NCBI GenBank assembly: GCA_900539345.1
Contig: UQBS01000007.1
Span: 8,246 to 72,245 of the forward strand
DNA length: 64,000 bases
Source: an uncultured Coriobacteriaceae bacterium
GTDB lineage: Bacteria; Actinomycetota; Coriobacteriia; Coriobacteriales; UMGS124
Direction of reading: 5' to 3'
In this document: positions 18,802-61,421 of the stretch, in pieces
Layout: every line of letters begins with the position of its first letter
Position numbering within the stretch: position 1 is the first letter of the stretch
The notes under the pieces: generated by a model
Databases searched by the model: none
Seen by the model: only the letters and a program-made list of their open reading frames with translations
What the model was told of the DNA's origin: nothing
Translations under genes and position numbers: made by a program

Positions 18802-20720
<1,919 letters not shown>

Positions 20721-20798
20721 GATGTAACCTCTCTTCAATAGATGGCGGGCCTCTTCCACCGCTTCTCCGGTGGGGTTACCCTTCCTTGATCGAAAGGC

Positions 20799-23057: not shown

Positions 23058-23059
23058 GC

Positions 23060-25528: not shown

Positions 25529-25532
25529 CACC

Positions 25533-25808: not shown

Positions 25809-25817
25809 GAGGCCCAC

Positions 25818-26906: not shown

Positions 26907-26952
26907 TCGGCCAGACCGCGGCCGCACCTTACGAGAAAGGCATCCAAGCGAC

Positions 26953-37897: not shown

Positions 37898-37959
37898 AAC
37901 GGGACCTCCGCATCTCGAACAATTGGGGGCTCTGTTCGCTCTCGCCAAATCGTAAGAGT

Positions 37960-40900
37960 CTATCTTAAATCATCGAGCATGCCCGCCAAAACCCATCCAT
38001 AAGAACTCACCGAAGCCCAACGAGAGCCAAGGCCTTCGACATAGGGGCACCAGCCGGCCAGCCAAGAGGAGAAGCGCGGGTCGACCAGGGGGTGCTTGAG
38101 CAAGCTCGTGTTGCCGGCGTAGTCGGCCATGCGCGGGTCGGCGTAGAGGCGCAGGTGCTGCACCTGGGCGCGCAGTCCCTCGCGCACCGAGGCGAACGTG
38201 TGGCCGGCAGCGCCGTCGTCGGTGGCGCCCAGGCCGGAGAAGTTGCACTGAGTGGGGTCGACCTGGCCTCCAAAGCGCAGGTAGCCGGTCTCATTCATGG
38301 CCTGCACGTACACCACGCCCGGGTCGACGCCCTCGTCGCGCGCCTCTTCGTAAAGAATCTTGCAGAACTCCTCGATGGTGGCCGCGCCCTTGTCCTTGTA
38401 CACATCGGCAGGGTAGGTCGCCCCAGAGGCCTTGTAGTCGGCGACCATGTCGGCAACCGTGACCTTGCTGTTTGCGTTCATGATGGGGTGCAAGGCCGTG
38501 GAGAACTCAACCGTGGCAAAGGCCTGCTTCTCCGCGTCTGCCGTGGGAGCCGCCCACACCTGCGCGACATAGTCGCCTGCGGCCAGCTGCGAGCGGGCGA
38601 GCTCGACTGCCCACGTACCCTTGGCCTCGCCAGCCGAGGAGAGGTCGAGGTCTTCGACATAGCGGGCGATGAACCACTGGGCAGTCGTGGCGTCGGAGCC
38701 TGCCTTCCAGATGGCGATGCTCACCGCACCTGCGGGCTTTACCTGGCCCGACGGGATCCAGAACTCATAGCCCGCTCCCTCGTCGGTCATCCTGCACGAA
38801 AGGGCGGTTACCTCAAAAGGGGCGTTTTCGCCACCCCCGTTGTCGGGCGCGGACCAACCGATGACACCCGAGAAGACGTCGAACATCTTTGCTGCCTGGG
38901 CGCGGGTGGCAGATTCCTTGGGGTTGAGCAGCGCAATGCCGGTGGTCGTATCGCCGGTGAGGATGCCCTTGGCGTTGCACCAGGCAAGCGCGTCATAGGC
39001 GAAGTCGCTCACCTCGTCGGCATCATAGAACGCGTCGATGGAGCCAACGTACACGTTGAGCCCGCAGCCCTTGGCATAGCGCCACAGCATGGTGGCGAGC
39101 TCCTCGCGGCTCACCGTCTTGTCGGGACGGAAAAGGCCGGCATACTCGCCGTCCTTGTAGCCGGTGACGATCCCCTGCTGGTAGGCCCACTCGATTGCGG
39201 CGGTATACCACTGCCCGAGGGCGACGTCGGGGAAGCTCGACTCCATGCCGTAATTGGAGGGGTCGGTGGTGGAGGTGCTCGAGGGGTTCGCGATGCGGTA
39301 GAGCATCGTGGCCACCATGCCGCGCGTCATGGTCTCTTCCGGGCCAAAGGTACGGCACACCCCGTCGTCATCGGAGAAGCCGGTCATGATGCCGGCGTCG
39401 ACCACATGCGCCACATAGTCCAGGTACCACTCGCCAGCTTCGAGGTCGTTGAAGCGCTTGACCTCGCCCGTGGTGGAGACACTCGCCAGCACGGAGTTGG
39501 CGGCGCTTGCCACATACCCGTCGAAGCGCAAGGTACCTACGACCACGTCTGCGGGAAGCTTGAAAGAAGCCTCCCAGGTCGTACCATCGACCTTGGTCAT
39601 CTCAAGCGAATGCATGGTGCCGTCGGGGAAGGTGACGTCAACATAGAAGTGGGCAGCGCCGGACAGGCCGGTGGAACCGCCAAGCGTCACGGTGCGCGTG
39701 GCGCCGTCGATGTCGGCAACGTGCAGCTCGCTCAGCGACAGGCCGGAGTTGTCCTTGTCCTTGGACAGACCAAAGAAGTCGGCGATGCCCTTGGCGTCGG
39801 CAACGCCGAGGTCGTGCAACGCCGTGTCGCTTGAGAGGAACTTGTAATCGTCCTTGCCGGAGATGAACGCATGCTCGACGATGATACCGGGGACGTTGTT
39901 CTTCTTGGTGTTGCGGATGATGGAATAGTAGTCGCGCTCGTTGCCAGAGCCGTCGATGTAGGTGTCGTTTTCCTTGATGCCGCGGTCATACAGGCCCAGG
40001 GCGACAAGGCGATCCTGAATGGACTGCGCGAGGTTCTCGCCGTCCTGGGTGACGGTGGTGATGCCGGCGCTGTAGTTGGGGAACCACACCTCGGCACCAT
40101 GGGAATTCGACGTGTCGGCCGAGTTGATGTGGATGCTCACGAACACCGAAGCGCCCGCAGCAACGGCATCGGCGACGCGGCGCTTGAGGCATTCGGCCTC
40201 GTTGTGGTCGTAATCGGTGAAGTAGGGGCAGTCGCCCGAATCGTCGCGCGTCATGTAGACGCTCACGCCGGGGTAGGTCTCCAGCTCATCGCGGCATGCC
40301 TGGGCGATCTTGAGCGTGAGTTCCTCTTCTCGCAGGTCTTGGCCCTGGGCGCCGGGAGACTGGTTGTCATGACCGGGATCGAGGGCAATGACAAGGCCGG
40401 GAAGCTTCGTTGTAGCCTGGCCCTCGGCGTCGGAGGCGGCATCGACGGCCATGGCGTTGAGCATGACGTCGGAGACGCCCGCGACGTCGAGCGCGTCCTC
40501 GACGCTCTGGGCTTCCACAAGCTCGCCTGCGGCGTCGATGGTATAGGCGGTGAGGTCGGCAACAGGTTCAGTCGCCTGGGTGACCTCAAACACATACGCG
40601 CTGGTAGAAAGCGCAAAGTCCACCGCATGCTCGCTACCGTCGGCAAGGGTGTACGAGAGGGACCTCAGAGACGAGGTTCCCTGGCCGAGCAGCGCCGTAT
40701 CGATATTGAAGAGCATGGCCTCCATGTCGATGGCAGAAACCTCAACCTCAACGTCACCGTAAGGCGAGGAAAGGGTGAGCTGGGCAGACACGACCTGGCT
40801 CGCCTCATCGGCAAGCATGAGCGCGACCTGCTGGGTCTGGCCCTCCTCCAAGCTCGCCAGGGAAACGTACACCAAGGAGAGTGCCTCTTCGGGAGCGAGG

Positions 40901-41292
40901 GGTGCCTCGGGGGTCGCGTCGTCTGGCGATGCAGAGTCATCGGAAGAAGCAGGCTCGCTGGGCTCGGGGGTCGGCTGCTCTTCCTCGGGTTGGTCCGCAG
41001 GCGTCTGCTCGCCCTCCTGCTCATCGGCGGGATCGGGCTGGGGCTCGGCGTCGACATCGCCCTGGGCGGTGTCATCCGAAGGGGCATCCGGGGCCGGCTC
41101 GGCAGGAGCGGATGCATCTGCGCCCTCTTGATCGGTTCCCGCCTGGGCGGCGGGGGTCGAAGCGACCTCGTATGCCGGGGCCTGACCGGCCTCATCGGCA
41201 AGCGCCTGAGCGGCGGGCATGAATCCGCTGAGGATCATCGACCAGCTCACGAGGCACGAAAGGGCAAGATTGGCAACGGGATGTTTTGTCAC
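37960..41292 (-). CDS. SLH-anchored bifunctional peptidoglycan hydrolase (MurNAc-L-Ala amidase plus C-terminal glucosaminidase)
   Basis: The GTG at 41292 follows AAGGAG, and a signal peptide is present. The Amidase_3 domain (LDPGHDNQ...FVSIHINS...IIVEHAF) is encoded at about 39840-40400. Three SLH repeats (FNDLEAGEWYLDY..., FPDVALGQWYTAAIEW..., FYDADEVSDFAYDAL...) are encoded at about 38865-39453. The glucosaminidase-like end (VYVQAMNETGYLRFGG) is encoded at about 38090-38380. Confidence 0.88.
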   Translation of the reverse strand: MTKHPVANLALSCLVSWSMILSGFMPAAQALADEAGQAPAYEVASTPAAQAGTDQEGADASAPAEPAPDAPSDDTAQGDVDAEPQPDPADEQEGEQTPADQPEEEQPTPEPSEPASSDDSASPDDATPEAPLAPEEALSLVYVSLASLEEGQTQQVALMLADEASQVVSAQLTLSSPYGDVEVEVSAIDMEAMLFNIDTALLGQGTSSLRSLSYTLADGSEHAVDFALSTSAYVFEVTQATEPVADLTAYTIDAAGELVEAQSVEDALDVAGVSDVMLNAMAVDAASDAEGQATTKLPGLVIALDPGHDNQSPGAQGQDLREEELTLKIAQACRDELETYPGVSVYMTRDDSGDCPYFTDYDHNEAECLKRRVADAVAAGASVFVSIHINSADTSNSHGAEVWFPNYSAGITTVTQDGENLAQSIQDRLVALGLYDRGIKENDTYIDGSGNERDYYSIIRNTKKNNVPGIIVEHAFISGKDDYKFLSSDTALHDLGVADAKGIADFFGLSKDKDNSGLSLSELHVADIDGATRTVTLGGSTGLSGAAHFYVDVTFPDGTMHSLEMTKVDGTTWEASFKLPADVVVGTLRFDGYVASAANSVLASVSTTGEVKRFNDLEAGEWYLDYVAHVVDAGIMTGFSDDDGVCRTFGPEETMTRGMVATMLYRIANPSSTSTTDPSNYGMESSFPDVALGQWYTAAIEWAYQQGIVTGYKDGEYAGLFRPDKTVSREELATMLWRYAKGCGLNVYVGSIDAFYDADEVSDFAYDALAWCNAKGILTGDTTTGIALLNPKESATRAQAAKMFDVFSGVIGWSAPDNGGGENAPFEVTALSCRMTDEGAGYEFWIPSGQVKPAGAVSIAIWKAGSDATTAQWFIARYVEDLDLSSAGEAKGTWAVELARSQLAAGDYVAQVWAAPTADAEKQAFATVEFSTALHPIMNANSKVTVADMVADYKASGATYPADVYKDKGAATIEEFCKILYEEARDEGVDPGVVYVQAMNETGYLRFGGQVDPTQCNFSGLGATDDGAAGHTFASVREGLRAQVQHLRLYADPRMADYAGNTSLLKHPLVDPRFSSWLAGWCPYVEGLGSRWASVSSYGWVLAGMLDDLR

Positions 41293-41354
41293 CGTGTGCT
41301 CCTTACTTCTCGTATGGCTCCGCAAGACGCACGGCGGCGTATGCGGAAAGTCAA

Positions 41355-41393
41355 CAAAAGCACCTGGCATGGTACCATCCCCATGCCAGGTGC
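41355..41393 (-). terminator. Rho-independent terminator
   Basis: GCACCTGGCATGG (41360-41372) pairs with CCATGCCAGGTGC (41381-41393). On the minus strand it is followed by TTTTG. Confidence 0.7.
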
Positions 41394-41472
41394 ATGATTC
41401 CGCAATTGGAAAAACAGCGTTCCGTCCCTGCCGCGCCGTTATTGTATACAGCCAAAATGCCTGGTCAGAAGG

Positions 41473-43224
41473 CTACAAGACATCGCGTACGAGAACCGTG
41501 AGGATTTTTGCCATCTGAGCGCGCGTGGCGTAGCCGTGAGGGTTGAGCAAGGGATAGCCGTAGGTGGTGTCGCCGGTGATAATGCCGTAGAGGTTGCACC
41601 AAGAAAGACCATGCAGGGCGTAGTCCGACACGGCCCACGCGTCATCGAACCCGCTGATGTCGCCCATCTCGGAGCCCATGCCCAGCATGAGGGCATAGCG
41701 GTGCACCATGGTGGCAAGCTGCTCACGGGTCACGCAGTCATCAGGACGGAAGTAGCCCGTCTCCTCGCCGTACTCGTCGCGCTCACCGGTCACGATGGAG
41801 TTGTGATAGCACCACTCAACCACGCCAGCGTACCACTTATCTTCCCAGACGTCATAGAAGCAATCGCCTGCACCCTGAGGCGTGTAGCCCGTGGCATGGC
41901 GGCACAGAACCGCCGCCACCTCGGCGCGGCTCACCGCATTGTCAGGCCCGAATAGGCCCGTGTCCGAATAGCCGGTCATAAGACCGGCGTCGCGCACATA
42001 CGCAACGTAGCCCGCGTACCAGGCGTCTGCATCAACATCAGGAAAGCCGGGCTTGTTGTCAGGCACAGGCGGGTCCACGGGCTCGTCGCCACCCTCAACC
42101 AGCTTGACGCCGCCCAGCCAACCGCAGCGCGGAGCAACGACGTCGTCGTAGCTCGCAACCCAGCGCTCAAGGGGAACCATGCGGATGTAGCCGAGGTTGT
42201 CGACTACCTGGCCCTCTCCGTTCTCGTCTTTGCCGATGTAGATGCCCACGTGACCGTAAATCTGTCCGTCGTTGGTCCAGTTGTGCGAAGGCGTGGCAAT
42301 GATCATGCCCGGCTTGATGTAGCTGATATCGGAAATGGTGCACCAGTCAGCATACATGTCGCAGGCGTTGCCCCAGAAGAGACCAACACCAGCCTGGTCG
42401 TACACCTCGGTAACCCAGCTCGCGCAGTAGCCCTCGCCCGTAGACGACACCGTGACGCACGCCTCGAGAACCGCGGCAAGCAAGCTGCCGGGATAGGCTT
42501 CGGTAATGACGCCCGACGCGATAATCTCGCGCAGCCTGGTGCGCGTGGCCTCGGTTATCTGGGCAAACTCGTCTTCGCCGGCGCCTTCAGGCTTGCCTTC
42601 GCCCGAGGGCTTGTCCTTCGCGCTGTCGCCGTCTTGCCCCTCGGGCTGGGACGTCTCGCCCTGTGCTTGATTGGCGGTCTGGTCAGCCTTTGCCTTCTCG
42701 TCAGCCTCGGCCTGCGCACGCGCGGCAAGCTCGCGGTCGTATTGCTCAGTCAGCGCCTTCACCTCGGCGTCGGCCTCGTTGAGCGCCTGGGTCGCCTCAT
42801 CTTGACGGCGCTTAACCTCAGCAAGCTGGTCGCTCTTCTGAGTGCGCAAGGTTTCAAGCTCAGCCTTCTGGGCTGCGAGGTCGGCTTGGCGAGTCTCAAG
42901 CTCGGCAAGAACCTCTTCGTCGGCCTGCTCAGCAGGCACGGCAAGGAGGGCGTCTATCTCTCCTTGGATGTCGGCAATTTGCTGGGCCTTGGCATCAATC
43001 AGGCCAAGCGTTGACTCAAGCTCGACACAAAGCTGCTGGTATTGGGCAACAAGCTCATCAATCAGCGCCTTAAGGCCATCGTAGCGCGACCGTGCATCGG
43101 CAAGGGCGGCAGCAGTTGCATCCACGTCGGCACGCGCAATCGAGGAAAGCACGCCCAAACCGCAGGCCCCCAACAGCGAGAGTCCTGCCGCAACAGCAAA
43201 GGAGCGACGTGAAAGCAAGTTCAT
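41473..43224 (-). CDS. SLH-anchored coiled-coil / CHAP-like cysteine peptidase (PcsB-like architecture)
   Basis: The ATG at 43224 opens a protein with a signal peptide and a long coiled coil. The Cys/His module reads GYCASWVTEVY...GNACDMY...GHVGIYIG...VVDNLG. Three SLH repeats are encoded at about 41476-42045. Confidence 0.78.
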   Translation of the reverse strand: MNLLSRRSFAVAAGLSLLGACGLGVLSSIARADVDATAAALADARSRYDGLKALIDELVAQYQQLCVELESTLGLIDAKAQQIADIQGEIDALLAVPAEQADEEVLAELETRQADLAAQKAELETLRTQKSDQLAEVKRRQDEATQALNEADAEVKALTEQYDRELAARAQAEADEKAKADQTANQAQGETSQPEGQDGDSAKDKPSGEGKPEGAGEDEFAQITEATRTRLREIIASGVITEAYPGSLLAAVLEACVTVSSTGEGYCASWVTEVYDQAGVGLFWGNACDMYADWCTISDISYIKPGMIIATPSHNWTNDGQIYGHVGIYIGKDENGEGQVVDNLGYIRMVPLERWVASYDDVVAPRCGWLGGVKLVEGGDEPVDPPVPDNKPGFPDVDADAWYAGYVAYVRDAGLMTGYSDTGLFGPDNAVSRAEVAAVLCRHATGYTPQGAGDCFYDVWEDKWYAGVVEWCYHNSIVTGERDEYGEETGYFRPDDCVTREQLATMVHRYALMLGMGSEMGDISGFDDAWAVSDYALHGLSWCNLYGIITGDTTYGYPLLNPHGYATRAQMAKILTVLVRDVL

Positions 43225-43375
43225 CAATGGTGCGCCCTTCCGACAACAATCAGGTGTACGAGCGGGGCCAGTCTACACCATGCCAGAGCAACGCGCATCG
43301 CATAGAGGCACGAGACGCCCTGCGGCACCCGAGCGCGACACAAACAGACGATAAGAATGGCCACAACCCGAAACA

Positions 43376-43414
43376 CGCGCGCCCCGCACTCCAGGTTCGA
43401 GGGCGGGGCGCGCG
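43376..43414 (-). terminator. Perfect 12-bp GC hairpin between two SLH genes (possible terminator)
   Basis: CGCGCGCCCCGC (43376-43387) pairs with GCGGGGCGCGCG (43403-43414). The loop is ACTCCAGGTTCGAGG. The T tract is weak. Confidence 0.4.
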
Positions 43415-43591
43415 CTAGTTGGGGAGTAGGGCCCCGAGTGACGGGCTCCCCTACTAGGTCAGGCTGAAAGACTCAAACTCAGCGGAGCCGAGACCCGAGC
43501 CGGTACCAGATACAAAGGCAGGCTCGGAGCTTGCAGACTCGGAGGGCACGGCGGGCTGCACGGGTTCGCCGGGGACCGCAGGCCCGGAGGG

Positions 43592-46500
43592 CTACTCGGG
43601 CTCAGCAGACTGCTCGGATTGGTCAGGGTTCGCAGGCGTGGCGGGCTCACTGGGCTGGTCCGGAATCGCAGGTTCTGCAGGCTGCTCGGACTCGCCGGGG
43701 ACCGCAGGCTCGGAGGGCTCGGCGGGATTGCTGGGCTGCTCGGGCTCGGCGGGAGCCGCGGGCTCGCTGGGCTGGTCCGGGTTCGCAGGCTCGCCAGGCT
43801 GACCGGGCCCTGCGGGCTCGCTGGGCTGCTCGGGCTCGGCGGGCTGCTCGGGCTCGGAGGGCTCGTCCTTGGCGCCCGCGCCCTCGAGGTCGGCGGGCAG
43901 GCCGGTGGCGCCGAGCCAGGCGGTCAGGGCTTCGAGACAATCGGCACCCAGGGGGCAGCCGCGAAGCGCCAGGCGCTCCAGGGCGGGCATGCAGGCGGGG
44001 TCGAGCGAGGAGACCTGGGTCCCCGAGAGGTCGAGGAAGCGCAGGGCGGAAAGCCCCCCGAGGGCCTCGTCGCCCGCGAGCCTGAGCTCGGCGACGCCGC
44101 TGCCGGAGGCGTCGAGGGAGGCGAGCCCGCAGCCGCGCTCGAGCGAGAGGGACTCCAGGCGCGTGCGGCCGTCGGGGTCGGGGGTGCCGGCCTGGGCGTC
44201 GCCGTCCCAGGAGAGGTCGGCGCTCACGACGTCCGCGCCCTCGATCTGGGCGGGAAGCGCGAGGTCCGTGGCCTCTCCCCTGTAGGCCGTCACATACACG
44301 CCCGCGCCCACGTAGCGGCCGCCGAGCTCGGCGTACTCGCGGTCGAGCACGTAGGCCTCGCCCGCGGCGTCGACGGCACCCTCGGGCACGGCGAGGTAGG
44401 TGAGGCCGTTGAGCTCACCGGCAACGGCCGCGGGGGCCGCAGCGGGCTGCTGGGCCACGTCGGCGACAGGTCTGTCCTCAGCCTCGGCGTAGGGGCTCAG
44501 CTCGCCACCCGCCAGCTTGTCCATCTGGGTGAATATCTTGGCAGCCTGGGCGCGAGTCGCTGTGCCCTGCGGCAGCAGCAGCGGCTTTGCGTCGCCCACA
44601 AATCCGGTGAGCACGCCCGACGCACCGCACCACACCATCGCGTCGCGAGCCCAAGGTGAGACCGCCCACGTGTCCGAGGCGGCATTGAAGGAGGCCGAGG
44701 GCGGGTTGGCCGTCTTGACGCCGGCCCACTTGGCGAAGCGGTAGGCCATCGTGGCGAGCTCCTCGCGGGTCACCTCGTTGTCGGGCAGGAAGCACCCGGC
44801 GTTGGGGCCGGAGGTGTAGCCGGTGACGATGCCCTTGGACATGCACCAGGCAACGGCCTCATAAGCCCAGTGGCCCTGAACATCCCAAAGCGCACCGGAC
44901 GAGCAGGCAGGGCTGCCAGCGACGCGCCACAGCACGGTAGCCACCATGGCGCGGGTCACCGCGGAGTCGGGCTCGAAGTAGCCCGTGTAGTAGATACCGG
45001 CGTCGTCCTTCAAGCCGGTCATGAGGCCGCGCTTTGCCGCCTGGGTCACCCAGTCGGTGTACCACTCACCTGCCGGCACGTCCTTGAAGCTCGTGGGCGG
45101 CACCTGCTCCCACTTGGCGTAGAGCGTGAGGTTGCCCTTCACGGCCGAGTTGAAGTCATAAGACCTGGTAAGACCCTTGTCGGCATACCAGCCCTTGAAA
45201 TAGAAGCCTGACTTCGCGGGGTCGGCAGGCCTGGATGCCTTGGCGCCGTACGTGACGGACTGCGCTTTCACGGACGTGCCGCCGTTCGAGTTGAAGGTCA
45301 CCGTGTACCCGTTGGGTGCCCACTTGGCATAAAGTGTGATGTTGCCCTTAACCGGCGCATTAAAGTTGTATGCCTTCGTCAGCCCCTTGTCGGAGTACCA
45401 GCCCTTGAAGGTGTGACCGGCGCGCGTGGGGTTGGCAGGCTTGGACACTGCCTTGCCCTCTTCCACAGAGGCCGTCGTCTGGGAGCATGTGCCTCCGTTG
45501 GCGTTGAAGACCACCGTGTACGTTGCGAGGTAGCGCCACTTTGCATACACGGTCTTGTTGGACGTGATGGGCACCTTGAAATCAAACGGCGTGGTGCAAG
45601 AGCCGGTGGTGTACCAGCCGTCAAAGACATAGCCGCCACGCGTGGGGTCAGCAGGCTTCTTGAGCGTGTCTCCGCTCCTCACCTTCTGCGTCGAAATGAC
45701 GTCGACATCATAGTTCCACCTGTTATATGTGCCAAAGGTGACGGTGTAGTACCGATAGGCAACGGGGGTGGTGACGGACTCCAGGATGCTTCCGCCGCCC
45801 ACGCTCGCACTCAGCGTGAAGCTGCCCGGCGCCTTGCCACTCACCGTGACGGTCTTCGGATTGAAGCTTGCCGCCGAGGAGCCGTCGAGCGACCAGGTCA
45901 CACAGCTGTCGTCAATCTTCGACACCCAGCTCGCATAGGTGCCGCCGATGTGCGCGAACAGGCCGAAGCGCTGCGACTCGCCGACACCCAGGCTCTCGTT
46001 TGCGGCAACGATGCTCGTACCAGCCGCGTTGACCAGGTACACCGAGAACGTGGCACCCAGCTCTGCCAGGGCGGAGGACATGTAGTTGACATCCATGACC
46101 AGCGTCTTGTCGGCCTGCTTATATGCCGGGGACGCGGCAGTCGTGCCAAAGCACTGAACCCAGAACGTGCGGCCCGACACCGTGACGCAACCGATGCCGA
46201 TGGAGGTGCTGTCCGCGCTCAGGATATTCGCCTTGTGGCCCGAAGAATTCATCCACTGGTCCATGACGCCCTGAGCCGTTGTGGAGCCCACGGCGATGTT
46301 CTCGCGGGTCATCTTGGAACTGGCAGTGAAGCACTTTTGACCCGTGGGGCGTGTGTGGTCGAACACGATGGAGGTCTCGGCGGCGCGCTGCATTGCGACC
46401 GCCAAGAGGTCGGTATCCATCGTGAGCGCGGACAGTCCCTGCTTGGCGCGCTCCTGATTTACCAGGTCGAGCACTTCGAACGCCTTAGAGTAGCTTACTT

Positions 46501-48403
46501 GCGCCTCCACGGACAGGGTGCCGTCGTACTTGTAGTAGCCGTCGACCTGCTCATCAAGATACGAGGGGTAGCTGGGGGTGAAACCGCAGCCAAAGAACGC
46601 CTCGTTGGAGACAAACCTGAGGTCGGAGCCAAAGGGAAAGCCCGTGATGGGCGCGTAACGGAACGCATACCTATAGATGTACTTGAGGTTCTGCCCGCCT
46701 GTTACACGTGCAAGCTGCTTGCAGTCGCCGAACGCGCCATAGTTGATCTGCACCAGGCTCGAAGGCAGGTCGATGCTGGTGATGGCCGAACCAGCGAAGC
46801 ACGCGTTGCCGATAGTGCGCAGGCTCGACCCCAACGTGACGCTTGCCAAGTTCGGACAGCTGAAGAAACACTCCCAACCTGCGCATTCGCCCAGCTCGGC
46901 CACATTGTTGCTGATACGGACGCCGCGGAGCTGGTTGCAGTTTGAGCAGATATAGCCCTGCACGCACGTCACCGAGTCGGGCATGTCAAGGCTCTGGATG
47001 GCCGTGCCGTACAGGCAGTACTGCTCCATCCTGGTAAGGCCTTGGGGCAGCACGATGTTGGAGAACGTGGCGTTGTTGCACATCGCGTAGGAACCGATGG
47101 TCGTCACGCTGGACGGCACCGTGTATGTGCCGCCGCCCAGATTAGACGTCTGAGCGTAGAGGATGGTGCCGTCGCGGGAAAGCAGGGCGCCGTTCACTAC
47201 CTTGTAGTTCTTAGCATTGGAGGGAGCCACGAACGTCACGGGCGGGCAACCGCCGCACGGGTTGTAATGCTCCGTCACCTGATAGGTGTTGCTGCCCGAA
47301 ATCACGTTGCCCACGTACACCATGGGCTCGAGGTTGACGTTCAGCGTCAGCTTCGTGAGGAGCGAGTTGCGAAACGCGTCGTGCCCGAGCGTCTTCACGT
47401 TTTGGGGAATAACGAACGACGCGATGGGCGTATTCTCAAATGCGCACTCACCGATGCTCACGAGCTGGGAGTTCGAGGGAAACGTGATCTTGGAGACCTT
47501 GGTGTAGCTGAAGCACGAGGCACCGATTTCCTTGATGGTGGCGGGGAACGTGACCGAGGTCACCGTCTTGGGCAGGCCACCGCCATAGAAGTTCACACCG
47601 TATATCTGCTTGCCGTCGAGCTTTGCCGGCAGCGTAATGGAACTCGCCGAGCCATAGTAGCCGTCGAGGACGTAGACCGTGTTGCCGCTGTCGTCCTTGG
47701 ACTCATAGTAGCTCCAGTCCCCCGAGTACACCGTGGCCGAGTAGGCAACGGGGACGTTGGCTGCAGAGTCGTCGGCGGAGCCGTAGCCCATGGGGGCAGA
47801 GCTCCCCTCAGGCTCCGCGTCGGCTGCAACGTCGTATTCGGGCACCTGAGAAGGGTCGCTCGTGACGGAGCTGCCGGCTGGGAACATCTGAGACGAGGCA
47901 CCCGCATCCTCACGGCTGGCCGCCTCACCGATAAACGCCTGTTGAGAGGAGGCATCGGGCCCGGGGATGAAACCGGGGTTCGCGGCGACGGTTATGCCTG
48001 ATGCTGATGCGTCGGCACCGGGTTCAGGGTCCGCAGAGCCGGCGGTGCTGATTTCAGAAACGGCAGAGCCAGCGGCATCTGGCTTGGAGATGACAGGGTC
48101 AGCAATGCCGGGCTCGGAGACGGTAGAACCCGCGGCATCGGGCTCGGGGGCAGCCGAATCTGTGGCGCCGTCGGCCACATCCGTCCGTGAGATGTCGGTA
48201 TCGGACCCGGAAGCGGGGTCGGGGCTTACAACATCGACCGGCCTTTCTACCTGGGAACTCGCATCCACCTTCACCTGCGACACAGCAGGTTCCTCCGCCC
48301 AGGAAGGCGAGCTCAGGACCCCAAGACACAACGTGACAGCCAGCCCGGCAACAAACACCGCAAGCAGCCGGCGAGCCGCTCCCCCAACACGAAACACATC
48401 CAC
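43592..48403 (-). CDS. Giant SLH-containing surface protein (BspA-type LRR, CAP/SCP domain, three Listeria-Bacteroides Flg_new repeats, internal triple SLH, second LRR, Pro-rich tail)
   Basis: The GTG at 48403 follows GGAGG, and a signal peptide is present. The LRR region is encoded at about 46500-47650. The CAP domain (LVNQERAKQGL...GHKANIL...FWVQCFG) is encoded at about 46145-46490. The YTVTFNSNGG...GWY...YAKW repeats are encoded at about 45095-45740, and the SLH repeats at about 44515-45088. Confidence 0.85.
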   Translation of the reverse strand: MDVFRVGGAARRLLAVFVAGLAVTLCLGVLSSPSWAEEPAVSQVKVDASSQVERPVDVVSPDPASGSDTDISRTDVADGATDSAAPEPDAAGSTVSEPGIADPVISKPDAAGSAVSEISTAGSADPEPGADASASGITVAANPGFIPGPDASSQQAFIGEAASREDAGASSQMFPAGSSVTSDPSQVPEYDVAADAEPEGSSAPMGYGSADDSAANVPVAYSATVYSGDWSYYESKDDSGNTVYVLDGYYGSASSITLPAKLDGKQIYGVNFYGGGLPKTVTSVTFPATIKEIGASCFSYTKVSKITFPSNSQLVSIGECAFENTPIASFVIPQNVKTLGHDAFRNSLLTKLTLNVNLEPMVYVGNVISGSNTYQVTEHYNPCGGCPPVTFVAPSNAKNYKVVNGALLSRDGTILYAQTSNLGGGTYTVPSSVTTIGSYAMCNNATFSNIVLPQGLTRMEQYCLYGTAIQSLDMPDSVTCVQGYICSNCNQLRGVRISNNVAELGECAGWECFFSCPNLASVTLGSSLRTIGNACFAGSAITSIDLPSSLVQINYGAFGDCKQLARVTGGQNLKYIYRYAFRYAPITGFPFGSDLRFVSNEAFFGCGFTPSYPSYLDEQVDGYYKYDGTLSVEAQVSYSKAFEVLDLVNQERAKQGLSALTMDTDLLAVAMQRAAETSIVFDHTRPTGQKCFTASSKMTRENIAVGSTTAQGVMDQWMNSSGHKANILSADSTSIGIGCVTVSGRTFWVQCFGTTAASPAYKQADKTLVMDVNYMSSALAELGATFSVYLVNAAGTSIVAANESLGVGESQRFGLFAHIGGTYASWVSKIDDSCVTWSLDGSSAASFNPKTVTVSGKAPGSFTLSASVGGGSILESVTTPVAYRYYTVTFGTYNRWNYDVDVISTQKVRSGDTLKKPADPTRGGYVFDGWYTTGSCTTPFDFKVPITSNKTVYAKWRYLATYTVVFNANGGTCSQTTASVEEGKAVSKPANPTRAGHTFKGWYSDKGLTKAYNFNAPVKGNITLYAKWAPNGYTVTFNSNGGTSVKAQSVTYGAKASRPADPAKSGFYFKGWYADKGLTRSYDFNSAVKGNLTLYAKWEQVPPTSFKDVPAGEWYTDWVTQAAKRGLMTGLKDDAGIYYTGYFEPDSAVTRAMVATVLWRVAGSPACSSGALWDVQGHWAYEAVAWCMSKGIVTGYTSGPNAGCFLPDNEVTREELATMAYRFAKWAGVKTANPPSASFNAASDTWAVSPWARDAMVWCGASGVLTGFVGDAKPLLLPQGTATRAQAAKIFTQMDKLAGGELSPYAEAEDRPVADVAQQPAAAPAAVAGELNGLTYLAVPEGAVDAAGEAYVLDREYAELGGRYVGAGVYVTAYRGEATDLALPAQIEGADVVSADLSWDGDAQAGTPDPDGRTRLESLSLERGCGLASLDASGSGVAELRLAGDEALGGLSALRFLDLSGTQVSSLDPACMPALERLALRGCPLGADCLEALTAWLGATGLPADLEGAGAKDEPSEPEQPAEPEQPSEPAGPGQPGEPANPDQPSEPAAPAEPEQPSNPAEPSEPAVPGESEQPAEPAIPDQPSEPATPANPDQSEQSAEPE
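43595..43870 (-). repeat. Degenerate tandem repeats encoding a Pro/Glu/Ser-rich tail (P-x-E-P type)
   Basis: The DNA shows variants of GGGCTCGGCGGGCTGCTC. The protein reads PSEPEQPAEPEQPSEPAGPGQPGEPANPDQPSEP... Similar tracts are encoded at about 40890-41150, 51135-51425 and 54060-54440. Confidence 0.8.
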
Positions 48404-48632
48404 GCGAACCTCCAATCGATCACAACAACACGCACTTTGCCGGCGCACATGATACGCCACATCGAAACTGCGAGATTGTAAAAAGTGAGACGGTCCGAAC
48501 GCGAGGGTCGATCAGCTTAACCGCCTGAAAACGACGCGTCCCCACCCCTCTAGCAAAGGCGCTCGCTTCTCCTTTTCTCTTTGGCGACCAATTCGAGGGC
48601 GAAACGCGAGGCGGTAAGCTGCCCACCCTCAA

Positions 48633-48680
48633 ACGCAAAAAGCCCGCCGGGCGAGGGGTGCTCCCCTGCCTGGCGGGCTT
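48633..48680 (-). terminator. Rho-independent terminator
   Basis: AGCCCGCC (48641-48648) pairs with GGCGGGCT (48672-48679), with inner pairing as well. On the minus strand it is followed by TTTTTGCGTTT. Confidence 0.68.
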
Positions 48681-48705
48681 GTGTGCGGTATCGGTGTGCG
48701 GCGTC

Positions 48706-51696
48706 TTACTTCGCGAAGAGCCTGCCGACGCCTGAGATTCTGTCGTAGTTGTAATTGGTGGAGTTGTGCAAAGTCGTGATGTAGACGCCGCCCGAGGGAA
48801 GTGCCTGGATGATCTGGTCGTTGCCCAGGTAGATGGCCACATGACCCGGCCAGAACACGAGGTCGCCACGGCTCATCTGCCACTTGCTGATGCGCTGGAT
48901 CTTGCCGTAGTTCCACAGGTTGTTGGCGTCGTGGCTGTGCCAACCGTCGCTGCCCGAATCCCAGTGGCAGATGGGGTCGAAGCACTTGATGTAGTCGTCG
49001 TCCTTGGTGTCCATGCCCACGGCATAGCAGCACTGCATGACGAGGCCCACACAGTCCACGCCCACACCCGGCGCACACGCGTAGTTCCACACATACGAGG
49101 TGCCCAGGTACTCATAGGCGCGCGCGATGAAGGCCTCGACGCAGTCCTGACGCGTGGCGGCGGCGCCGATGCGCGAGGGAGTCATGTACGACAGGATGCC
49201 GCGCGAGGGGCTGTGCGGCGAGACGTTGTAGGTGCTCACCTGGTACATGTCGCTGGGGTTCTGCCAGCCAATCTTGCCCGAAGGAGCGTAGAGGATGCGC
49301 TGGGCACGGTAGTCCTCGTGGCCCTCGGGGTCGATGACCTTGGCGTAGAACCAATAGTAGTCCTCCGCCGGCAGGGTCACGCTCAGCGACTCGCCACCCA
49401 TCTGGGAGCCAACCAGAGTCGCGGAACCCTCAGCCCAACCGCGCTTCCATGTGTACTTGAACGAATAACCCTCGGTGCTCGGAGCGTCGAGAATAGCCGC
49501 AACCGTCCAGCTTGCGTCGCCGGCGGAGCCGACCTTGGCTCTCTCGAGCTTCCATACCTGAACAACGCTCGACGCCATGTGAGCCGTGCCGTAGGCATCG
49601 GTGACCTTGACGTACACGGTGTATTTACCAGGGGTGTCGAAATCCAGGTTCACAGATGAACTGGACCCAGCGTCGCCCGTCCACGTGCTGCCATCAGAGC
49701 AGACCCAGGCAAACTGGTACGTAAGCCCCGAGCCGGAACCCGAGACGTTCGCCGTGGCCTTGGTGGAACTGCCGGCCTTGAGGTAGGCGTTTGCCGTGCT
49801 CAGGCCGGAAAGCGACCAGCTAGCCTGCTGCATCGTGGCGCCCGCCAGCACATCGCGCGAAAGCACAGTAATCATCTTGGCGGCCTGGGCACGGGTGGTG
49901 GCCGCCTGCGGGTTGAGCAGGGCGACGCCCGTGGTGGTGTCGCCCGTCAAGATGCCGGCAGCGTTTGCCCACTCCATGGCGTCAACAGCGTACTCGCTCA
50001 CCTGGTCCGAGTCGTAGAAGCCCGAGATGTCCGCGCTGCCCGACCCCTTGCCGCAGCGCTGGGCGAAGCGATAGAGCATGGTAGCGAAATCCTCACGAGT
50101 GATGGGGTCGCCCACGCCGAACTTGCTGGTAGCAAAATAGCCGGTAGAGATGCCGTTCTCATAGGCCCACTCAACGGCAGCCGTGTACCACTGCCCTGTC
50201 TCGACATCGGAGAAATGCGAGGTCGAGCTCGATGCAGAACCCTTGGCATAGCGATAGAGGATGGTCACAACCTGCTCGCGCGAAATGCCGTCGTTGGGAC
50301 CGAACAGGCCGTCGTCGGAATAGCCGCTCATGAGGCCGTTATCTACCACGTAGTCGATATAGCCGCCCTTGACGTACCAGGAATCGACAGGCGTATCGGG
50401 AAAGCGTGCCTCGTGCTTGTTGTCCTCGCCAGCAAGGGAGTCGGTGGCCGTGCCCATCTTGACCGGGGCAGTCGCGGCACAGATGCTCAGGGCATCGCCG
50501 GCCTGCTCAAGCGCGTCGGCAAGGGCGCTGCGCGCGGAGACCACGGAGGCAGCAGCGGCATCCGAAACGCCAGCGTTGTCATCTGCAGGATTAAAGGCGC
50601 CAGCGAGCATCTGGGTTGCGGCCTCGCCAAGCCAGGCGAAGTCGTACTGCTCGAAATCCGAAGGCAGAGCGAGCTCCACCACAACGATGGGCATGCCGTC
50701 CTGCGCCGCAGGAAGCTCGCAGGCAAACTCCCCACCGGCGAGGTTGGCGTGCACCTCAAGAAGCAGGTCAGCGCCCGACTCCTTGGCAAGAGCGATGCGG
50801 GCGGCGAGCTCATCTTGAGCAGAGGCGCCGGGAGCGATGGCCTGCGAGCTCGAACGAAGCGTGCCGACGCTCAGGCCCTGGACATCCTGCACGGAGCGCG
50901 CAAGCTGCTGGGTCAGTGCAAGCGTGAGGTTGGCCTCAGTGAGATCGCCCAGAGCCGTGCCTGCATGCTCGCCGTCATGGGCGGCATCGAGTGCGGCCTT
51001 GAGCGCGGCACCCTCAGAGGCACGCGCGGGAGCAGCAGCGGCAAGAGCCTCGGAAAATGTGGCGTAAGCCGTCTTGCCCTCGGGCGTCACCACGTAATAT
51101 TTGAGCGTGCAGGTGCCGGCAAGCTTGGTGTCGGCGGGCGCATCGGGGGCAGAGGGGTTCTCCGGCTCTGCAGGCTTGGTGGGCTCGCCGGGCTGGGTGG
51201 GCTCCGTCGGCACCGCAGGATCGATGGGCTCGGTAGGCTCGGCCGGGTCTGTCGGCTGACTGGGGTCGGTGGGGTCCGTCGGCGTTGTGGGCTCGCTGGG
51301 CTCGGCCGGATTCACGGGAGCCACAGGATCGGTAGGGTCTACTGGCGCCGCAGGTTCGCCGGGCACGGTAGGCTCACTCGGCCCAGCAGGGTTCTCCGGC
51401 GTTGTGGGCTGATCAGGGCTCTCCGACCCAGAGACACCCGTGGACTCGCCGGGCAGTGCGCCACCATCAGAGCCAGTCGTCACAGCAGAGTCGCCCGACA
51501 CCGTTGTCGCTGCAGCCCCCTGCACATCGTCTTGTGCCGCAGCGCCAGCGACGGGCACACCCGCCTGCACCTGATCGGCGTTCGCCAAAGACACGATAGA
51601 GGTGCCCGCAATGCCCAAAGAGGCCACGAGGCCCATCGCGCACAAGGCGAGCTTGATACGAGCGGTCAATTGTCCAGCTGGTTTCATCTGCCCCAT
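48706..51696 (-). CDS. SLH-anchored NlpC/P60 endopeptidase with an N-terminal divergent Amidase_3-like domain
   Basis: It has a signal peptide and a Pro-rich linker. The amidase-like module reads LDAAHDGEHAG...LLLEVHAN...VVVELA. Three SLH repeats are encoded at about 49845-50402. Two Ig-like modules follow. The NlpC/P60 end reads YVWNYACAPGVGVDCVGLV...GDLVFWPGHVAIYLG. The start is either 51696 or 51687. Confidence 0.85.
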   Translation of the reverse strand: MGQMKPAGQLTARIKLALCAMGLVASLGIAGTSIVSLANADQVQAGVPVAGAAAQDDVQGAAATTVSGDSAVTTGSDGGALPGESTGVSGSESPDQPTTPENPAGPSEPTVPGEPAAPVDPTDPVAPVNPAEPSEPTTPTDPTDPSQPTDPAEPTEPIDPAVPTEPTQPGEPTKPAEPENPSAPDAPADTKLAGTCTLKYYVVTPEGKTAYATFSEALAAAAPARASEGAALKAALDAAHDGEHAGTALGDLTEANLTLALTQQLARSVQDVQGLSVGTLRSSSQAIAPGASAQDELAARIALAKESGADLLLEVHANLAGGEFACELPAAQDGMPIVVVELALPSDFEQYDFAWLGEAATQMLAGAFNPADDNAGVSDAAAASVVSARSALADALEQAGDALSICAATAPVKMGTATDSLAGEDNKHEARFPDTPVDSWYVKGGYIDYVVDNGLMSGYSDDGLFGPNDGISREQVVTILYRYAKGSASSSTSHFSDVETGQWYTAAVEWAYENGISTGYFATSKFGVGDPITREDFATMLYRFAQRCGKGSGSADISGFYDSDQVSEYAVDAMEWANAAGILTGDTTTGVALLNPQAATTRAQAAKMITVLSRDVLAGATMQQASWSLSGLSTANAYLKAGSSTKATANVSGSGSGLTYQFAWVCSDGSTWTGDAGSSSSVNLDFDTPGKYTVYVKVTDAYGTAHMASSVVQVWKLERAKVGSAGDASWTVAAILDAPSTEGYSFKYTWKRGWAEGSATLVGSQMGGESLSVTLPAEDYYWFYAKVIDPEGHEDYRAQRILYAPSGKIGWQNPSDMYQVSTYNVSPHSPSRGILSYMTPSRIGAAATRQDCVEAFIARAYEYLGTSYVWNYACAPGVGVDCVGLVMQCCYAVGMDTKDDDYIKCFDPICHWDSGSDGWHSHDANNLWNYGKIQRISKWQMSRGDLVFWPGHVAIYLGNDQIIQALPSGGVYITTLHNSTNYNYDRISGVGRLFAK

Positions 51697-51865
51697 CCGT
51701 TTCAATCGTCACGAGCAGCCCCGGCCCGAAGGCCGGGGCATAACTCTCACATGCGTCAAGGGTACCAGCCCTCGCGGCGGATGGGGCGAGCAAAAACAAA
51801 CTAACGGAGTGTTTCAAACGCTCCATAAACCCAAAAATCAACAACAGGTGCGTTTCTGCCCCCGC

Positions 51866-54595
51866 TTAGTACACGTACACCGTGGTTCCCGAGGGGATGG
51901 TCTCGTAAATCCACTTGGCGTTGGACGTCTCCAGGCGCACGCAACCGTGCGACAGGTGCATACCCAGACGCGTGTCCTTCGGAGCGCCGTTGGTGTAGTA
52001 CGTGGTGGAGTGGAACAGGTAGTCGCCGTAGAACTGCGTCCAGTAGTAGCAGCGCACACCATAGGAGTCGAAGTAATACCCGCGGCTATCCACGGAGAAC
52101 AGGCCCTTCACCGTGGGTGTGTAGTATGTACCGGGCGAGCACAGCCAAAGCGCGCCCTCTTCCCAGCCGTAAGGCATCTTGTAGTACACGCCAACCAGGC
52201 ACGACTCGGTGTCCACAGCAAGCAGCCACTCGGTGGGGCTAGTAAGGTTGCGAATCATGTTGTACACGTAGACCGAATCGCCCGAAATGACCTTCACGCG
52301 CGTGCCGGCATAGCTCTGATGTCCCTCAGGGTCGGTCACCTTGGCATACAGCCAATAGAAGCCATCGGAGTCGAGCCAGACCGTCTTGCTGGTGTTGGTG
52401 CTCTTCTCCCTGCCGAGCGTGGCGGCCGTATCCTCGTACATGCCCTTCTTCCACACATACTCATAGGTAAAGCCGCTGTTCGAGGGGGCCGTGTGGTTGA
52501 CGCCGATGGTCCAGGTGTGCATGTCCCACTCAGAGGTGGCCGTGGGCGCAAGGGCCTGCCACACGATGACCTCGGCGGACTGGATGCGGCTGATGCCGTT
52601 GGAGTCGGTTACCTGGCACCACAGCGTGAAGGTGCCCGAACCGCCCAGATAGTAGCTGAAACTCGCGTCCTTCTTGGAGCCGCTGCGCCAGGTCTCGCCT
52701 GCCGTGTTGTACCAGCCGTACTCATAGGTAAGGTCCGAGGTCGAGCCGCTCACCTGGGGTGTCGCGGTGATGTTGCCGCCGGCAATGAGATAGTGGTTGG
52801 GCGTAGACAGCGAGGAGTACGTCCAAGCAGGGCCCTGCAGCTGGGCGCCGTTGAGCGTGTCGCGCACGAGCACCGTAAACATCTTGGCCGCCTCGGCACG
52901 CGTGGTGTTGTCCTGGGGCTTGAGGCGCGCGGGCGTCTGGGTCTTGTCGCCGGTGATGATGCCCCTGCCGTTGGCCCACCTCATGGCGTTCCAGGCATAG
53001 GCGTTTACCTCATTGGCATCAGGGAAGGACGAGATGTTGCCGAGGTTGCCGCCCACGCCGCAGCCCTTGGCGAAGCGATGCAGCATCGTGGCAAGATCCT
53101 GCCTGGTAACAGGGTCATTGGGACCAAACAGACCCGTGCCGATGTAACCCGTGGTGATGCCGTTTTGATACGCCCACTCCACAGCAGCGGTGTAATACTC
53201 ACCCGTGGGCACGTCGTAGAAGTGCGTGGTAGTGCCATAGCTGGAGGGGTTGGTCGTGGCGTCGCTCGAGGGGTTGGCGTAACGGTACAGGATGACGAGC
53301 ACCTGAGCACGGCTGATCTGGTCCTGGGGACCAAAGTTGCCAGCGTCGGCACCCGTGGTGTATCCCGTCATGAGGCCGGAAGACGTCACATAGTCGAGCC
53401 AGCCCTCTGTTACATACCACTCGTTGGCGGGAGTGTCCTTGTAGAGATAAGGCTCCGTCGAAAGGACATTGGGCTCGGTGGGAGCAGGAACGACTTCGAA
53501 CTCGCCAAAGCCAAGGGAGAGAAGCTTCTCGGCCACTGCCTGCTCGATCTCAATTGCAGAGCCATCGAGAACCTTGGCGGCCTCGTCCTTCTGGAAGAGC
53601 CACAGGCGGGCGTCTGTGGGCAGGTTCATCTTGCCGGAAGCGTCCTGGGCAGAGGTTTCCTGCGCGGCCGTCGAATCGGCGGCGTCGGGCGCGTCCTCGG
53701 CATCGGCCGGCACAGATGCCTCCTGGGCAACCTCAATCACATAGGCAGCAGCGTCGGCCAGGAAGTCCACCACGCCGCGCGACCCGTCGGCGAAGGTCAC
53801 CTCAAGCTGCACGAGCTGGGCCTGGCCCACGCCCAAAGACTCCGTGGCAAGGTCGAACACGAGAAACCTGCCGTCGGTGCGCGTGGACTCAAAGGTCACA
53901 TCGCCCAGCGCGCCTCGCACGGTCAGAACGCCCTTTACGAGCTGCGCGTTCTCGTCCTGCAGGGCAATGGCGAGCGGCACCTTGTCACCCAGCACGGGAG
54001 CGGCATGGCTTGTGTAGGCAAAGTTCAAGAGCTCAACGGGGGCAACAGCGTCAACCTCGGTGTCGCCGGCAGGCTTGTCGGCAGCATCATCCTTCTCAGC
54101 GGGCTTATCTGCGGTGCTGCCATCGCCCTCAGCGGGCTTGTCCGTGCCGGCGGCAGCACCGTCACCCGGGGCAGAAGGTTGGTCGGAACCAGCGTCAGCG
54201 GAGTTGTCAGGCGTTGCAGGAACATCAGGCTGGGCAGGCTCGCCAGGCACAGGGACCCCAGGCTGGTCGGGGTCGCCCGTCGCAGGTGCGTCGGGCCCAG
54301 CGGGCTGCTCAGGCTCAGGGGAAACAGGAGCGTCGCCAGGCGCGGCAGGCTGCTCGGTATCACCCGAGGCGTCCGGAGCCCCAGGCGTCACGTCATCGCC
54401 ATCGCCTTCCTGCTCGCCACCGTTGCCGGCGTCGGGCCCCTGCTCCTGCTCATAGCCCGCAGCACCAGACTCGGACGCATCGTCGGCCCAGGCAGAGCCC
54501 ATACCAGGTACCATGCAGGCTAGAGCAAACACGCAAGACAACACCAGTACAAGCAGTGCATACACCGTGGCTCTCGAGCTTCTGACCTGCCTCAT
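51866..54595 (-). CDS. SLH-anchored L,D-transpeptidase (YkuD domain)
   Basis: The ATG at 54595 opens a protein with a signal peptide and a Pro/Asp-rich linker. Three SLH repeats are encoded at about 52850-53440. Two Ig-like modules are paralogous to those of the neighbouring gene. The C-terminal region carries HSTTYY...GMHLSHGCVRL, the YkuD catalytic motif. Confidence 0.85.
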   Translation of the reverse strand: MRQVRSSRATVYALLVLVLSCVFALACMVPGMGSAWADDASESGAAGYEQEQGPDAGNGGEQEGDGDDVTPGAPDASGDTEQPAAPGDAPVSPEPEQPAGPDAPATGDPDQPGVPVPGEPAQPDVPATPDNSADAGSDQPSAPGDGAAAGTDKPAEGDGSTADKPAEKDDAADKPAGDTEVDAVAPVELLNFAYTSHAAPVLGDKVPLAIALQDENAQLVKGVLTVRGALGDVTFESTRTDGRFLVFDLATESLGVGQAQLVQLEVTFADGSRGVVDFLADAAAYVIEVAQEASVPADAEDAPDAADSTAAQETSAQDASGKMNLPTDARLWLFQKDEAAKVLDGSAIEIEQAVAEKLLSLGFGEFEVVPAPTEPNVLSTEPYLYKDTPANEWYVTEGWLDYVTSSGLMTGYTTGADAGNFGPQDQISRAQVLVILYRYANPSSDATTNPSSYGTTTHFYDVPTGEYYTAAVEWAYQNGITTGYIGTGLFGPNDPVTRQDLATMLHRFAKGCGVGGNLGNISSFPDANEVNAYAWNAMRWANGRGIITGDKTQTPARLKPQDNTTRAEAAKMFTVLVRDTLNGAQLQGPAWTYSSLSTPNHYLIAGGNITATPQVSGSTSDLTYEYGWYNTAGETWRSGSKKDASFSYYLGGSGTFTLWCQVTDSNGISRIQSAEVIVWQALAPTATSEWDMHTWTIGVNHTAPSNSGFTYEYVWKKGMYEDTAATLGREKSTNTSKTVWLDSDGFYWLYAKVTDPEGHQSYAGTRVKVISGDSVYVYNMIRNLTSPTEWLLAVDTESCLVGVYYKMPYGWEEGALWLCSPGTYYTPTVKGLFSVDSRGYYFDSYGVRCYYWTQFYGDYLFHSTTYYTNGAPKDTRLGMHLSHGCVRLETSNAKWIYETIPSGTTVYVY

Positions 54596-59869: not shown

Positions 59870-60082
59870 CGTCCCTCCGTTTCATATCTTTGGCGCCAGG
59901 AGACCCCAATGAACATGTACCTGACCGCACGTGCGGCCAAACCAGTATTTTATCGAGGCCCGAACACAGCAAACAGGCCCCCTGGGCAAACCCCACCATA
60001 TCAGCTCAGCGCGGTGACGAGCCTGTGGGGAGAACGTGGCCGGCGTGTGAAGAGGCCCCATGGCGTAAGCAAGAAAGGCGGC

Positions 60083-61267: not shown

Positions 61268-61421
61268 ATCGCCCCTCCTCCCCTGCTTGAACTGTGTCCC
61301 CATCTTAGAGGATTGGCGTTCATTGGGCGTCTGCGGCGACGGTATGCAAAAATCCCCTAAAATGAAAGGTTACTCTATCGCAATCGCACGGCACTATGCG
61401 CCATGCACCGAAGGGAACCTT

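Follow-up and report, generated by a model that had tools for sequence, protein, structure and literature searches.

A cluster of five paralogous genes for predicted SLH-anchored surface proteins beside a wall-polysaccharide locus in an uncultured Coriobacteriaceae bacterium

In Bacillus anthracis, the genes for the BSL proteins have csaB and the O-acetylation genes patA/patB nearby (PMC7759979, PMC5817068). The Cwp proteins of Clostridioides difficile combine a triple wall-binding module with a variable functional domain and are encoded in a cluster beside the genes for their polysaccharide ligand; the set includes Cwp6, Cwp16 and Cwp17 with an Amidase_3 domain and a central anchor, Cwp12 with a CAP domain and Cwp22 with a YkuD domain, and some cwp genes vary strongly between strains, with cassettes being replaced (PMC5842191). 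S-layer homology (SLH) repeats combined with Amidase_3, GH73, CHAP or NlpC/P60 domains have been catalogued (PMC6403190) and SLH repeats in Coriobacteriales have been noted before (PMC5817068), and our literature search found no work on what SLH proteins do in Coriobacteriia. Here we analysed a block of five SLH-bearing genes, g1 to g5, in a stretch of 64,000 nucleotides (nt) of DNA, hereafter the window, from an uncultured Coriobacteriaceae bacterium (GTDB: UMGS124; GenBank assembly GCA_900539345.1, contig UQBS01000007.1, positions 8,246 to 72,245 of the forward strand).

We consider it likely that the block is a chromosomal cluster encoding paralogous, Sec-secreted surface proteins that are anchored by a triple SLH module to a secondary cell-wall polysaccharide. 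Under this reading, g1 is predicted to encode an enzyme with Amidase_3 and GH73 domains, g2 a CHAP-like cysteine peptidase or amidase, g3 a variable adhesin-like surface protein, g4 an NlpC/P60 endopeptidase that also has a degenerate amidase-like domain and g5 a YkuD L,D-transpeptidase. The region 37960-54595 consists of five long, neighbouring and co-oriented open reading frames (ORFs) on the minus strand: g1 (37960..41292), g2 (41473..43224), g3 (43592..48403), g4 (48706..51696) and g5 (51866..54595). Their GC content at third codon positions (0.73-0.82) is as in real genes of the window, which has a GC content of 63%. The GTG start codon of g1 at 41292 has an AAGGAG ribosome-binding site upstream and the start of a longer ORF at 41370 falls within a hairpin, so that the start at 41292 looks right. 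Inspection of the N-termini revealed hydrophobic signal-peptide-like segments with Ala-x-Ala-type cleavage sites in all five proteins, none of which contains an LPXTG motif. These results agree with a preliminary description of the window, which had placed five genes at these coordinates, with start codons that look right to us, and had seen neither LPXTG nor sortase signals.

Pfam detected SLH repeats (PF00395) in 5/5 proteins with E-values of 3e-15 to 2e-23, and the occurrence of five SLH-bearing genes side by side is genuine and not due to chance. When the five modules of about 190 amino acids (aa) were aligned, each protein showed three repeats with the pattern F.D....WY ... G(I/L).(T/S)G ... 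[ST]R. Each of the 15 repeats has an [ST]R motif and the arginine of the TRAE-type motif is invariant; the third repeat carries TRAQ or TRAE and the second [ST]RE or TRQ. Modules within the block are 36-55% identical in pairwise comparisons, above the 31-41% identity of the outside SLH modules compared with them, and no further SLH module was found in the window. A triple SLH module in each protein and one anchor common to all five, as claimed in the preliminary description, were thereby confirmed. Its remark that an internal SLH module is unusual did not hold, as four of the five proteins (g1, g3, g4 and g5) carry the module internally and only g2 has it at the C-terminus, and central triplets are known from Cwp6, Cwp16 and Cwp17 of C. 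difficile (PMC5842191).

The domains proposed earlier as partners of these modules (Amidase_3 plus glucosaminidase in g1, a coiled coil plus a CHAP-like Cys/His domain in g2, LRR, CAP and Flg_new domains with a mid-protein SLH module in g3, a divergent amidase-like domain plus NlpC/P60 in g4 and YkuD in g5) were for the most part recovered in the Pfam scan, with CHAP below its cut-off. A wall-remodelling activity as partner in every protein, as had been suggested, stands for g1, g2, g4 and g5, which carry different peptidoglycan-active domains, but not for g3, in which searches with Pfam and NCBIfam revealed no recognisable domain of this kind.

The g5 protein is composed of a signal peptide, an acidic/Pro-rich linker, an Ig-like domain, three SLH repeats (aa 385-581; Pfam E-value 1.9e-21), two PKD-like domains and a C-terminal YkuD domain (aa about 785-909). 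The YkuD match (PF03734; E-value 5.2e-12) reached 47 bits against a cut-off of 23.4. The active-site motif (His862 ... Ser-His883-Gly-Cys885-Val-Arg887) is intact and its residues are invariant or at least 90% conserved across 79-103 relatives. Among solved structures, PDB 4xxt is closest to the catalytic domain (1.2e-24). Orthologues of g5 are 49% to 97% identical, the protein is common in metagenome assemblies, and the subfamily of its catalytic domain is large (154 cluster representatives at E<1e-30). YkuD was found by Pfam in 79/79 of the nearest cluster representatives scanned, with choline-binding repeats as partner in 32, GBS_Bsp-like repeats in 17, ChW repeats in 11 and SLH repeats in two. 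A profile built from the five SLH modules of the block detected SLH in three of the 150 nearest relatives; P0178 and P0258 are SLH-linked YkuD proteins from outside this lineage with independent architectures. These counts make tethering to wall polymers the norm in the subfamily, and C. difficile Cwp22 is a known transpeptidase of the tethered kind. The preliminary description had called an SLH-tethered L,D-transpeptidase unusual, and the combination is indeed uncommon, but it is not unique.

Over about 740 aa, g4 and g5 are paralogous, differing mainly at the catalytic end. The g4 protein comprises a signal peptide, a Pro-rich linker, a shortened Amidase_3-like domain (aa 239-350; E-value 9.4e-8), three SLH repeats (aa 435-620; E-value 6.6e-23), two PKD-like domains and an NlpC/P60 endopeptidase domain (aa 868-983). 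NlpC/P60 (PF00877; E-value 3.4e-12) was matched with 46.7 bits against a cut-off of 23, and the residues of the Cys-His-polar triad (Cys885, His955 and Gln967) are present. The Amidase_3 match of 32.7 bits (cut-off 27) covers model positions 3-79 only; by eye, H243, E257, H319 and E344 line up with the zinc-binding and catalytic residues of Amidase_3. Orthologues of g4 are present in all clades examined, and four species-level metagenome-assembled genomes (MAGs) from the human gut, labelled uncultured Coriobacteriales/Coriobacteriaceae, contain orthologues with 89-95% identity.

As YkuD-fold enzymes include hydrolases, g5 might encode an L,D-carboxypeptidase or L,D-endopeptidase instead of a transpeptidase that forms cross-links, in which case all four enzymes of the block would be lytic. 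The position of g5 among paralogues of hydrolases, with g4 as the same scaffold in which NlpC/P60 replaces YkuD, fits this possibility, as do weak NCBIfam matches that comprise the L,D-carboxypeptidase ElsL as well as L,D-transpeptidases. The best matches of g5, however, are annotated transpeptidases and the full motif from the histidine to Ser-His-Gly-Cys-Val-Arg is preserved; transpeptidase and hydrolase activities are inseparable by sequence alone. We regard a purely hydrolytic g5 as unlikely and retain the prediction of an L,D-transpeptidase.

For g1, with aa numbers running from the longer ORF start at 41370, the order of elements is signal peptide, acidic/Pro-rich linker, Ig-like domain (common to g1 and g5), Amidase_3 (aa 328-530, nt 39781-40389), three SLH repeats (aa 640-833, nt 38872-39453; E-value 1.9e-23) and a GH73-type glucosaminidase domain (aa 1004-1085, nt 38116-38361), all on the minus strand; the protein is a predicted secreted bifunctional autolysin. 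The Amidase_3 model (PF01520) was matched over its full length (positions 1-173) with 107.8 bits and an E-value of 8e-31, and the zinc ligands and catalytic glutamate (H334, E349, H414 and E499) are all present. In the GH73-type domain the catalytic glutamate is Glu1027 within an N-E-T-G motif, and the C-terminal 140 aa match NCBIfam TftA (2e-27). Orthologues of the same Pfam architecture were found in the related contigs L001 (96% identity) and L011, L012 and L014 (about 50%), and the Glucosaminidase call recurs in those of L011 and L012.

The signal peptide of g2 is followed by a coiled coil of about 170 aa (aa 35-205), a CHAP-like domain of putative papain fold with Cys268 and His326 (aa about 255-375, nt 42103-42465) and the C-terminal SLH triplet (aa 395-584). 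Homologues of the catalytic domain, of which a word-indexed search gave four, are 43-48% identical and Cys268 and His326 are invariant among them. P0147, a homologue with 44% identity, passes the CHAP cut-off of 26 with 26.7 bits, and P0145 combines a weak CC_PcsB match with CHAP and NlpC/P60. An AlphaFold2 (AF2) model of the g2 domain had a predicted local distance difference test score (pLDDT) of 74.7, and its top Foldseek matches, although sub-threshold, were enriched in papain-like and CHAP amidases. Given a score below the cut-off, fold matches below threshold and homologues that do reach CHAP, we term g2 CHAP-like and not a proven CHAP protein. The signal peptide itself (43140-43224, minus strand) contains a twin-arginine-like motif (SRRSF) and a lipobox-like sequence (LGAC), which hint at Tat export or lipidation.

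The g3 protein is built differently, with a signal peptide, LRR_5 repeats (BspA-type), a CAP/YkwD-like domain (aa 664-771), three Flg_new domains, three SLH repeats (aa 1125-1313), a C-terminal LRR and a Pro/Glu-rich tail; LRR_5, CAP and Flg_new were strong Pfam matches. DNA homology to L001 ends exactly at the stop codon of g4 (48704) and restarts at 43292, 65 nt upstream of g2, and the slot in between (window 43293-48703) acts like a sharply bounded, exchangeable cassette. In L001 the corresponding slot (13003-15572) is occupied by a Choline_bind plus Beta-lactamase2 gene without SLH, and in L003 (7175-10650) by a different SLH/DUF285/Flg_new mosaic that has only the C-terminal LRR and the tail in common with g3. 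Judged from these comparisons, g3 is an adhesin-like passenger whose slot is swappable and holds other genes in sister species.

Within the genus the gene order is g5, g4, a variable gene, g2, g1 and the gene for a 390-aa zinc-ribbon/membrane protein; L001-L004, in which the variable gene was observed, lie in the MAG assemblies CAKUAI01, JAHZHK01, CABQHM01 and USJP01. Sister clades with about 50% aa identity and a GC content of 67-69% showed the order DUF4012, MBOAT, DHHW, triple glycosyltransferase, g5, g4, GT2, PS_pyruv_trans (csaB-type) and g1, or a variant with csaB, a g2-like gene and g1, after which the downstream genes are those of the window. GT2 and csaB of the sister clades sit where g3 sits here and the variable gene in L001-L004, and the predicted csaB-type gene is part of this locus in these relatives. 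Since g5, g4 and g1 are kept together across clades, they form its conserved core; g2 is absent from L011. The MBOAT and DHHW/AlgX-like pair adjoins DUF4012 in the sister clades (L010: 3764-6544; L011: 3713-6490) and is absent from the window. We take this pair to resemble the PatA/PatB genes for polysaccharide O-acetylation.

The preliminary description had gone further and proposed that the five proteins together cover essentially every bond class in peptidoglycan; the genes would then form one co-ordinated, self-contained wall-remodelling toolkit, possibly an operon. Adjacency, common orientation, the shared anchor and the conservation of the core across clades speak for co-ordination. The coverage of bonds, however, is incomplete: Pfam revealed no muramidase, lytic transglycosylase, D,D-endopeptidase or D,D-carboxypeptidase domain in the five proteins, YkuD is expected to make cross-links and not to cut them, and an SLH-linked GH25 muramidase is encoded elsewhere, in related contigs. 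The exchange of g3, which lacks a peptidoglycan-active domain, and the absence of g2 from L011 likewise argue against such a toolkit. The genes are separated by intergenic gaps of 169, 302, 367 and 180 nt. A terminator-like hairpin between g2 and g1 (41360..41393, minus strand) has a 13-bp stem with 9 G-C pairs and is followed by TTTTGTTGA, and a weaker one follows g4 (48643-48655). A promoter scan gave background level only. From the gaps and hairpins, a single tight operon was rejected as unlikely, and the block is probably transcribed as several units. We consider a co-ordinated toolkit quite unlikely and return to the reading of a paralogous surface-protein family with mixed passengers.

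Several observations weigh against this reading in its details. The Glucosaminidase match of g1 (PF01832) is marginal, with 30.7 bits against a cut-off of 30.2, and a PDB sequence search with the C-terminal GH73 region revealed nothing significant. For CHAP (PF05257), where the cut-off is 26 bits, the complete g2 protein scored 18.1 bits and its isolated domain 21.7 bits; a Foldseek comparison of the g2 model with the PDB yielded no match at E<=1e-3 and a PDB sequence search with the domain nothing significant. The amidase-like domain of g4 is without about 40 core residues, its PDB sequence search also gave nothing significant, and its AF2 model reached a pLDDT of 39.6, a low value that stems from the 20 available orthologues being about 90% identical. 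Finally, no csaB (PS_pyruv_trans) gene is present in the 64-kb window, and the contigs of csaB homologues were all from other lineages, with none tied to CAKUAI01, JAHZHK01, CABQHM01 or USJP01.

In several high-GC gut lineages (L015-L017 and L020-L026), csaB-type genes recur beside genes for SLH-GH25, SLH-Peptidase_S8 and SLH-Amidase_3 proteins. A secA gene also adjoins csaB in L025 and L026, a contig pair with csaB beside SLH genes and a GC content of 60-62%, near that of the window. On L022, which is another high-GC contig, the ATPase of an ABC transporter (597 aa; 8727-10520) gave a faint SLH match; it lies beside csaB and GT2 genes and may represent a polysaccharide exporter with an SLH-like domain.

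The presence of csaB in the g3 slot of sister clades supports canonical anchoring to a pyruvylated wall polysaccharide, and CsaB-dependent anchoring of the five proteins is plausible. A loss of csaB and its partner GT2 from the locus would allow the opposite reading, with the SLH modules of this clade binding another ligand, such as peptidoglycan itself or a non-pyruvylated glycan. This reading would account for the missing PS_pyruv_trans gene, for the occupation of the GT2-csaB slot by g3 or the variable gene and for the absence of csaB matches tied to this clade. The absence, however, covers only 64 kb of the genome, other lineages hold csaB at separate loci beside other SLH genes, among them L025/L026 with their similar GC content, and the arginine of the TRAE-type motif is invariant in 15/15 repeats. 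We consider binding to such another ligand very unlikely. Slightly fainter still is the prospect that a hypervariable SLH-adhesin cassette displaced the GT2-csaB pair and that, if no csaB exists elsewhere in the genome, the five proteins are anchored without pyruvylation. If so, SLH modules of a gut actinobacterium would bind in a mode that differs from canonical, CsaB-dependent binding. To our knowledge, work on SLH/CsaB anchoring has dealt almost exclusively with Firmicutes. Within the locus, interest centres on the displaced csaB slot and on the variable g3 cassette.

That the block is a mobile element or the lysis region of a prophage and not a set of housekeeping envelope genes was rejected as extremely improbable: the g3 slot is cassette-like and phages typically have multi-domain lysins with wall-binding modules, but 5/5 proteins have putative signal peptides and long linkers, the GC content across the block is flat (0.61-0.66) and like that of the flanks, clades with no more than about 50% identity still show chromosomal synteny with housekeeping neighbours, and no integrase, holin or structural phage gene was found among the neighbours scanned.

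Upstream of g5 and transcribed divergently from it lies the first gene of an adjacent wall-polysaccharide locus, which encodes a triple glycosyltransferase of 990 aa (GT2, DUF4422 and GT8 by Pfam; 54848..57820, plus strand). It adjoins g5 in every clade examined, with 48-61% aa identity. By Pfam, the locus continues with genes for a DUF4012 protein (58001-59869, minus strand), a GT1/GT4 glycosyltransferase (60083-61303, minus strand) and a Bac_transf initiating phosphoglycosyl transferase (61224-62822, plus strand). These genes (58001..62822) are syntenic in L001 and L002, and DUF4012 also keeps its syntenic position in L010 and L011. On the other side of the block, the ORF of the 390-aa zinc-ribbon/transmembrane protein, recognised by reading of its sequence (36776..37948, minus strand), begins 11 nt past the stop codon of g1. 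It had no Pfam or NCBIfam match and is conserved downstream of g1 in L001 (96%) and L012 (50%), and it may belong to the SLH system.

Farther away, the window contains a heat-shock operon (dnaK-grpE-dnaJ-MerR(HspR-like)-clpB) and a nikR-hypF-hypD-hypE set at 13773-20759 and 22629-27975; the heat-shock genes and the predicted hydrogenase-maturation genes are consistent with an anaerobic actinobacterium. Rfam and tRNA features were absent from the 64-kb window. Positions 2001-6000 have a lower GC content (51-55% vs about 63%), hold a DUF6273/TPR ORF (4609-5679) and an ORF without a family match (3445-4575), and may be acquired DNA.

Taking these results together, we infer the following working model. 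The five proteins would be exported and held non-covalently by their SLH triplets on a wall polysaccharide from the adjacent locus, whose synthesis genes presumably make the SLH ligand; in relatives, the polysaccharide would be pyruvylated by CsaB. On the wall, g1, g2 and g4 may cut N-acetylmuramic acid (MurNAc)-L-Ala, N-acetylglucosamine (GlcNAc)-MurNAc and stem-peptide bonds during wall turnover and the separation of daughter cells, and g5 may form or edit L,D (3-3) links in the mature wall, away from the membrane. The g3 protein would display strain-specific binding domains. The genes probably arose through duplication, with domains shuffled around the SLH module. Uncultured human-gut Coriobacteriia would then follow the same logic as the described systems, with a paralogue family on one anchor, adjacent polysaccharide genes and a swappable slot for a surface protein. 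For this poorly known gut lineage, the locus offers candidates for autolysins, for a wall-tethered L,D-transpeptidase and for a strain-variable adhesin.

Two comparisons concern single proteins of the block. The g2 protein resembles coiled-coil cysteine peptidases of the PcsB, CwlO and RipC type in overall architecture only, with its N-terminal coiled coil followed by a putative papain-fold domain, which is CHAP or NlpC/P60 in those proteins, but adds a C-terminal SLH triplet. CC_PcsB was not matched in g2 even at E<=1, no ftsEX genes were found in the window, and regulation of g2 by FtsEX would be pure conjecture. With the YkuD subfamily of 4xxt, g5 has in common that YkuD lies C-terminal to wall-targeting repeats, whereas these relatives mostly use choline-binding, GBS_Bsp-like or ChW repeats and g5 uses SLH.

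As a whole, the overall design of the block matches that of the cwp/slpA locus of C. difficile, which lies beside the PSII (AP) polysaccharide genes. Proteins of that locus are anchored by CWB2, a PSII-binding module, and not by SLH, and the phylum differs; CWB2 (PF04122) was not matched by Pfam in the five proteins and no slpA or secA2 equivalent was seen in the window. Owing to the different anchor, the Cwp family is an analogue and not a kin group. The BSL proteins of B. anthracis use SLH as well. Both sets consist of paralogous proteins, secreted or predicted to be so, with three SLH repeats and varied passengers (murein hydrolases and adhesins in B. anthracis), and in both the ligand would be a wall polysaccharide made and modified by nearby genes, which in the sister-clade loci include csaB and the MBOAT/DHHW pair. 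In contrast to B. anthracis, the host here is an actinobacterium (Coriobacteriales), no counterparts of sap, eag or other S-layer protein genes were identified, the SLH module is mostly internal and not N-terminal, an SLH-linked YkuD enzyme is part of the set, and the window lacks csaB. With the BSL/CsaB and cwp/slpA designs as its closest analogues, the arrangement is an ordinary one, which extends a known theme to a gut actinobacterium and leaves the picture unchanged.

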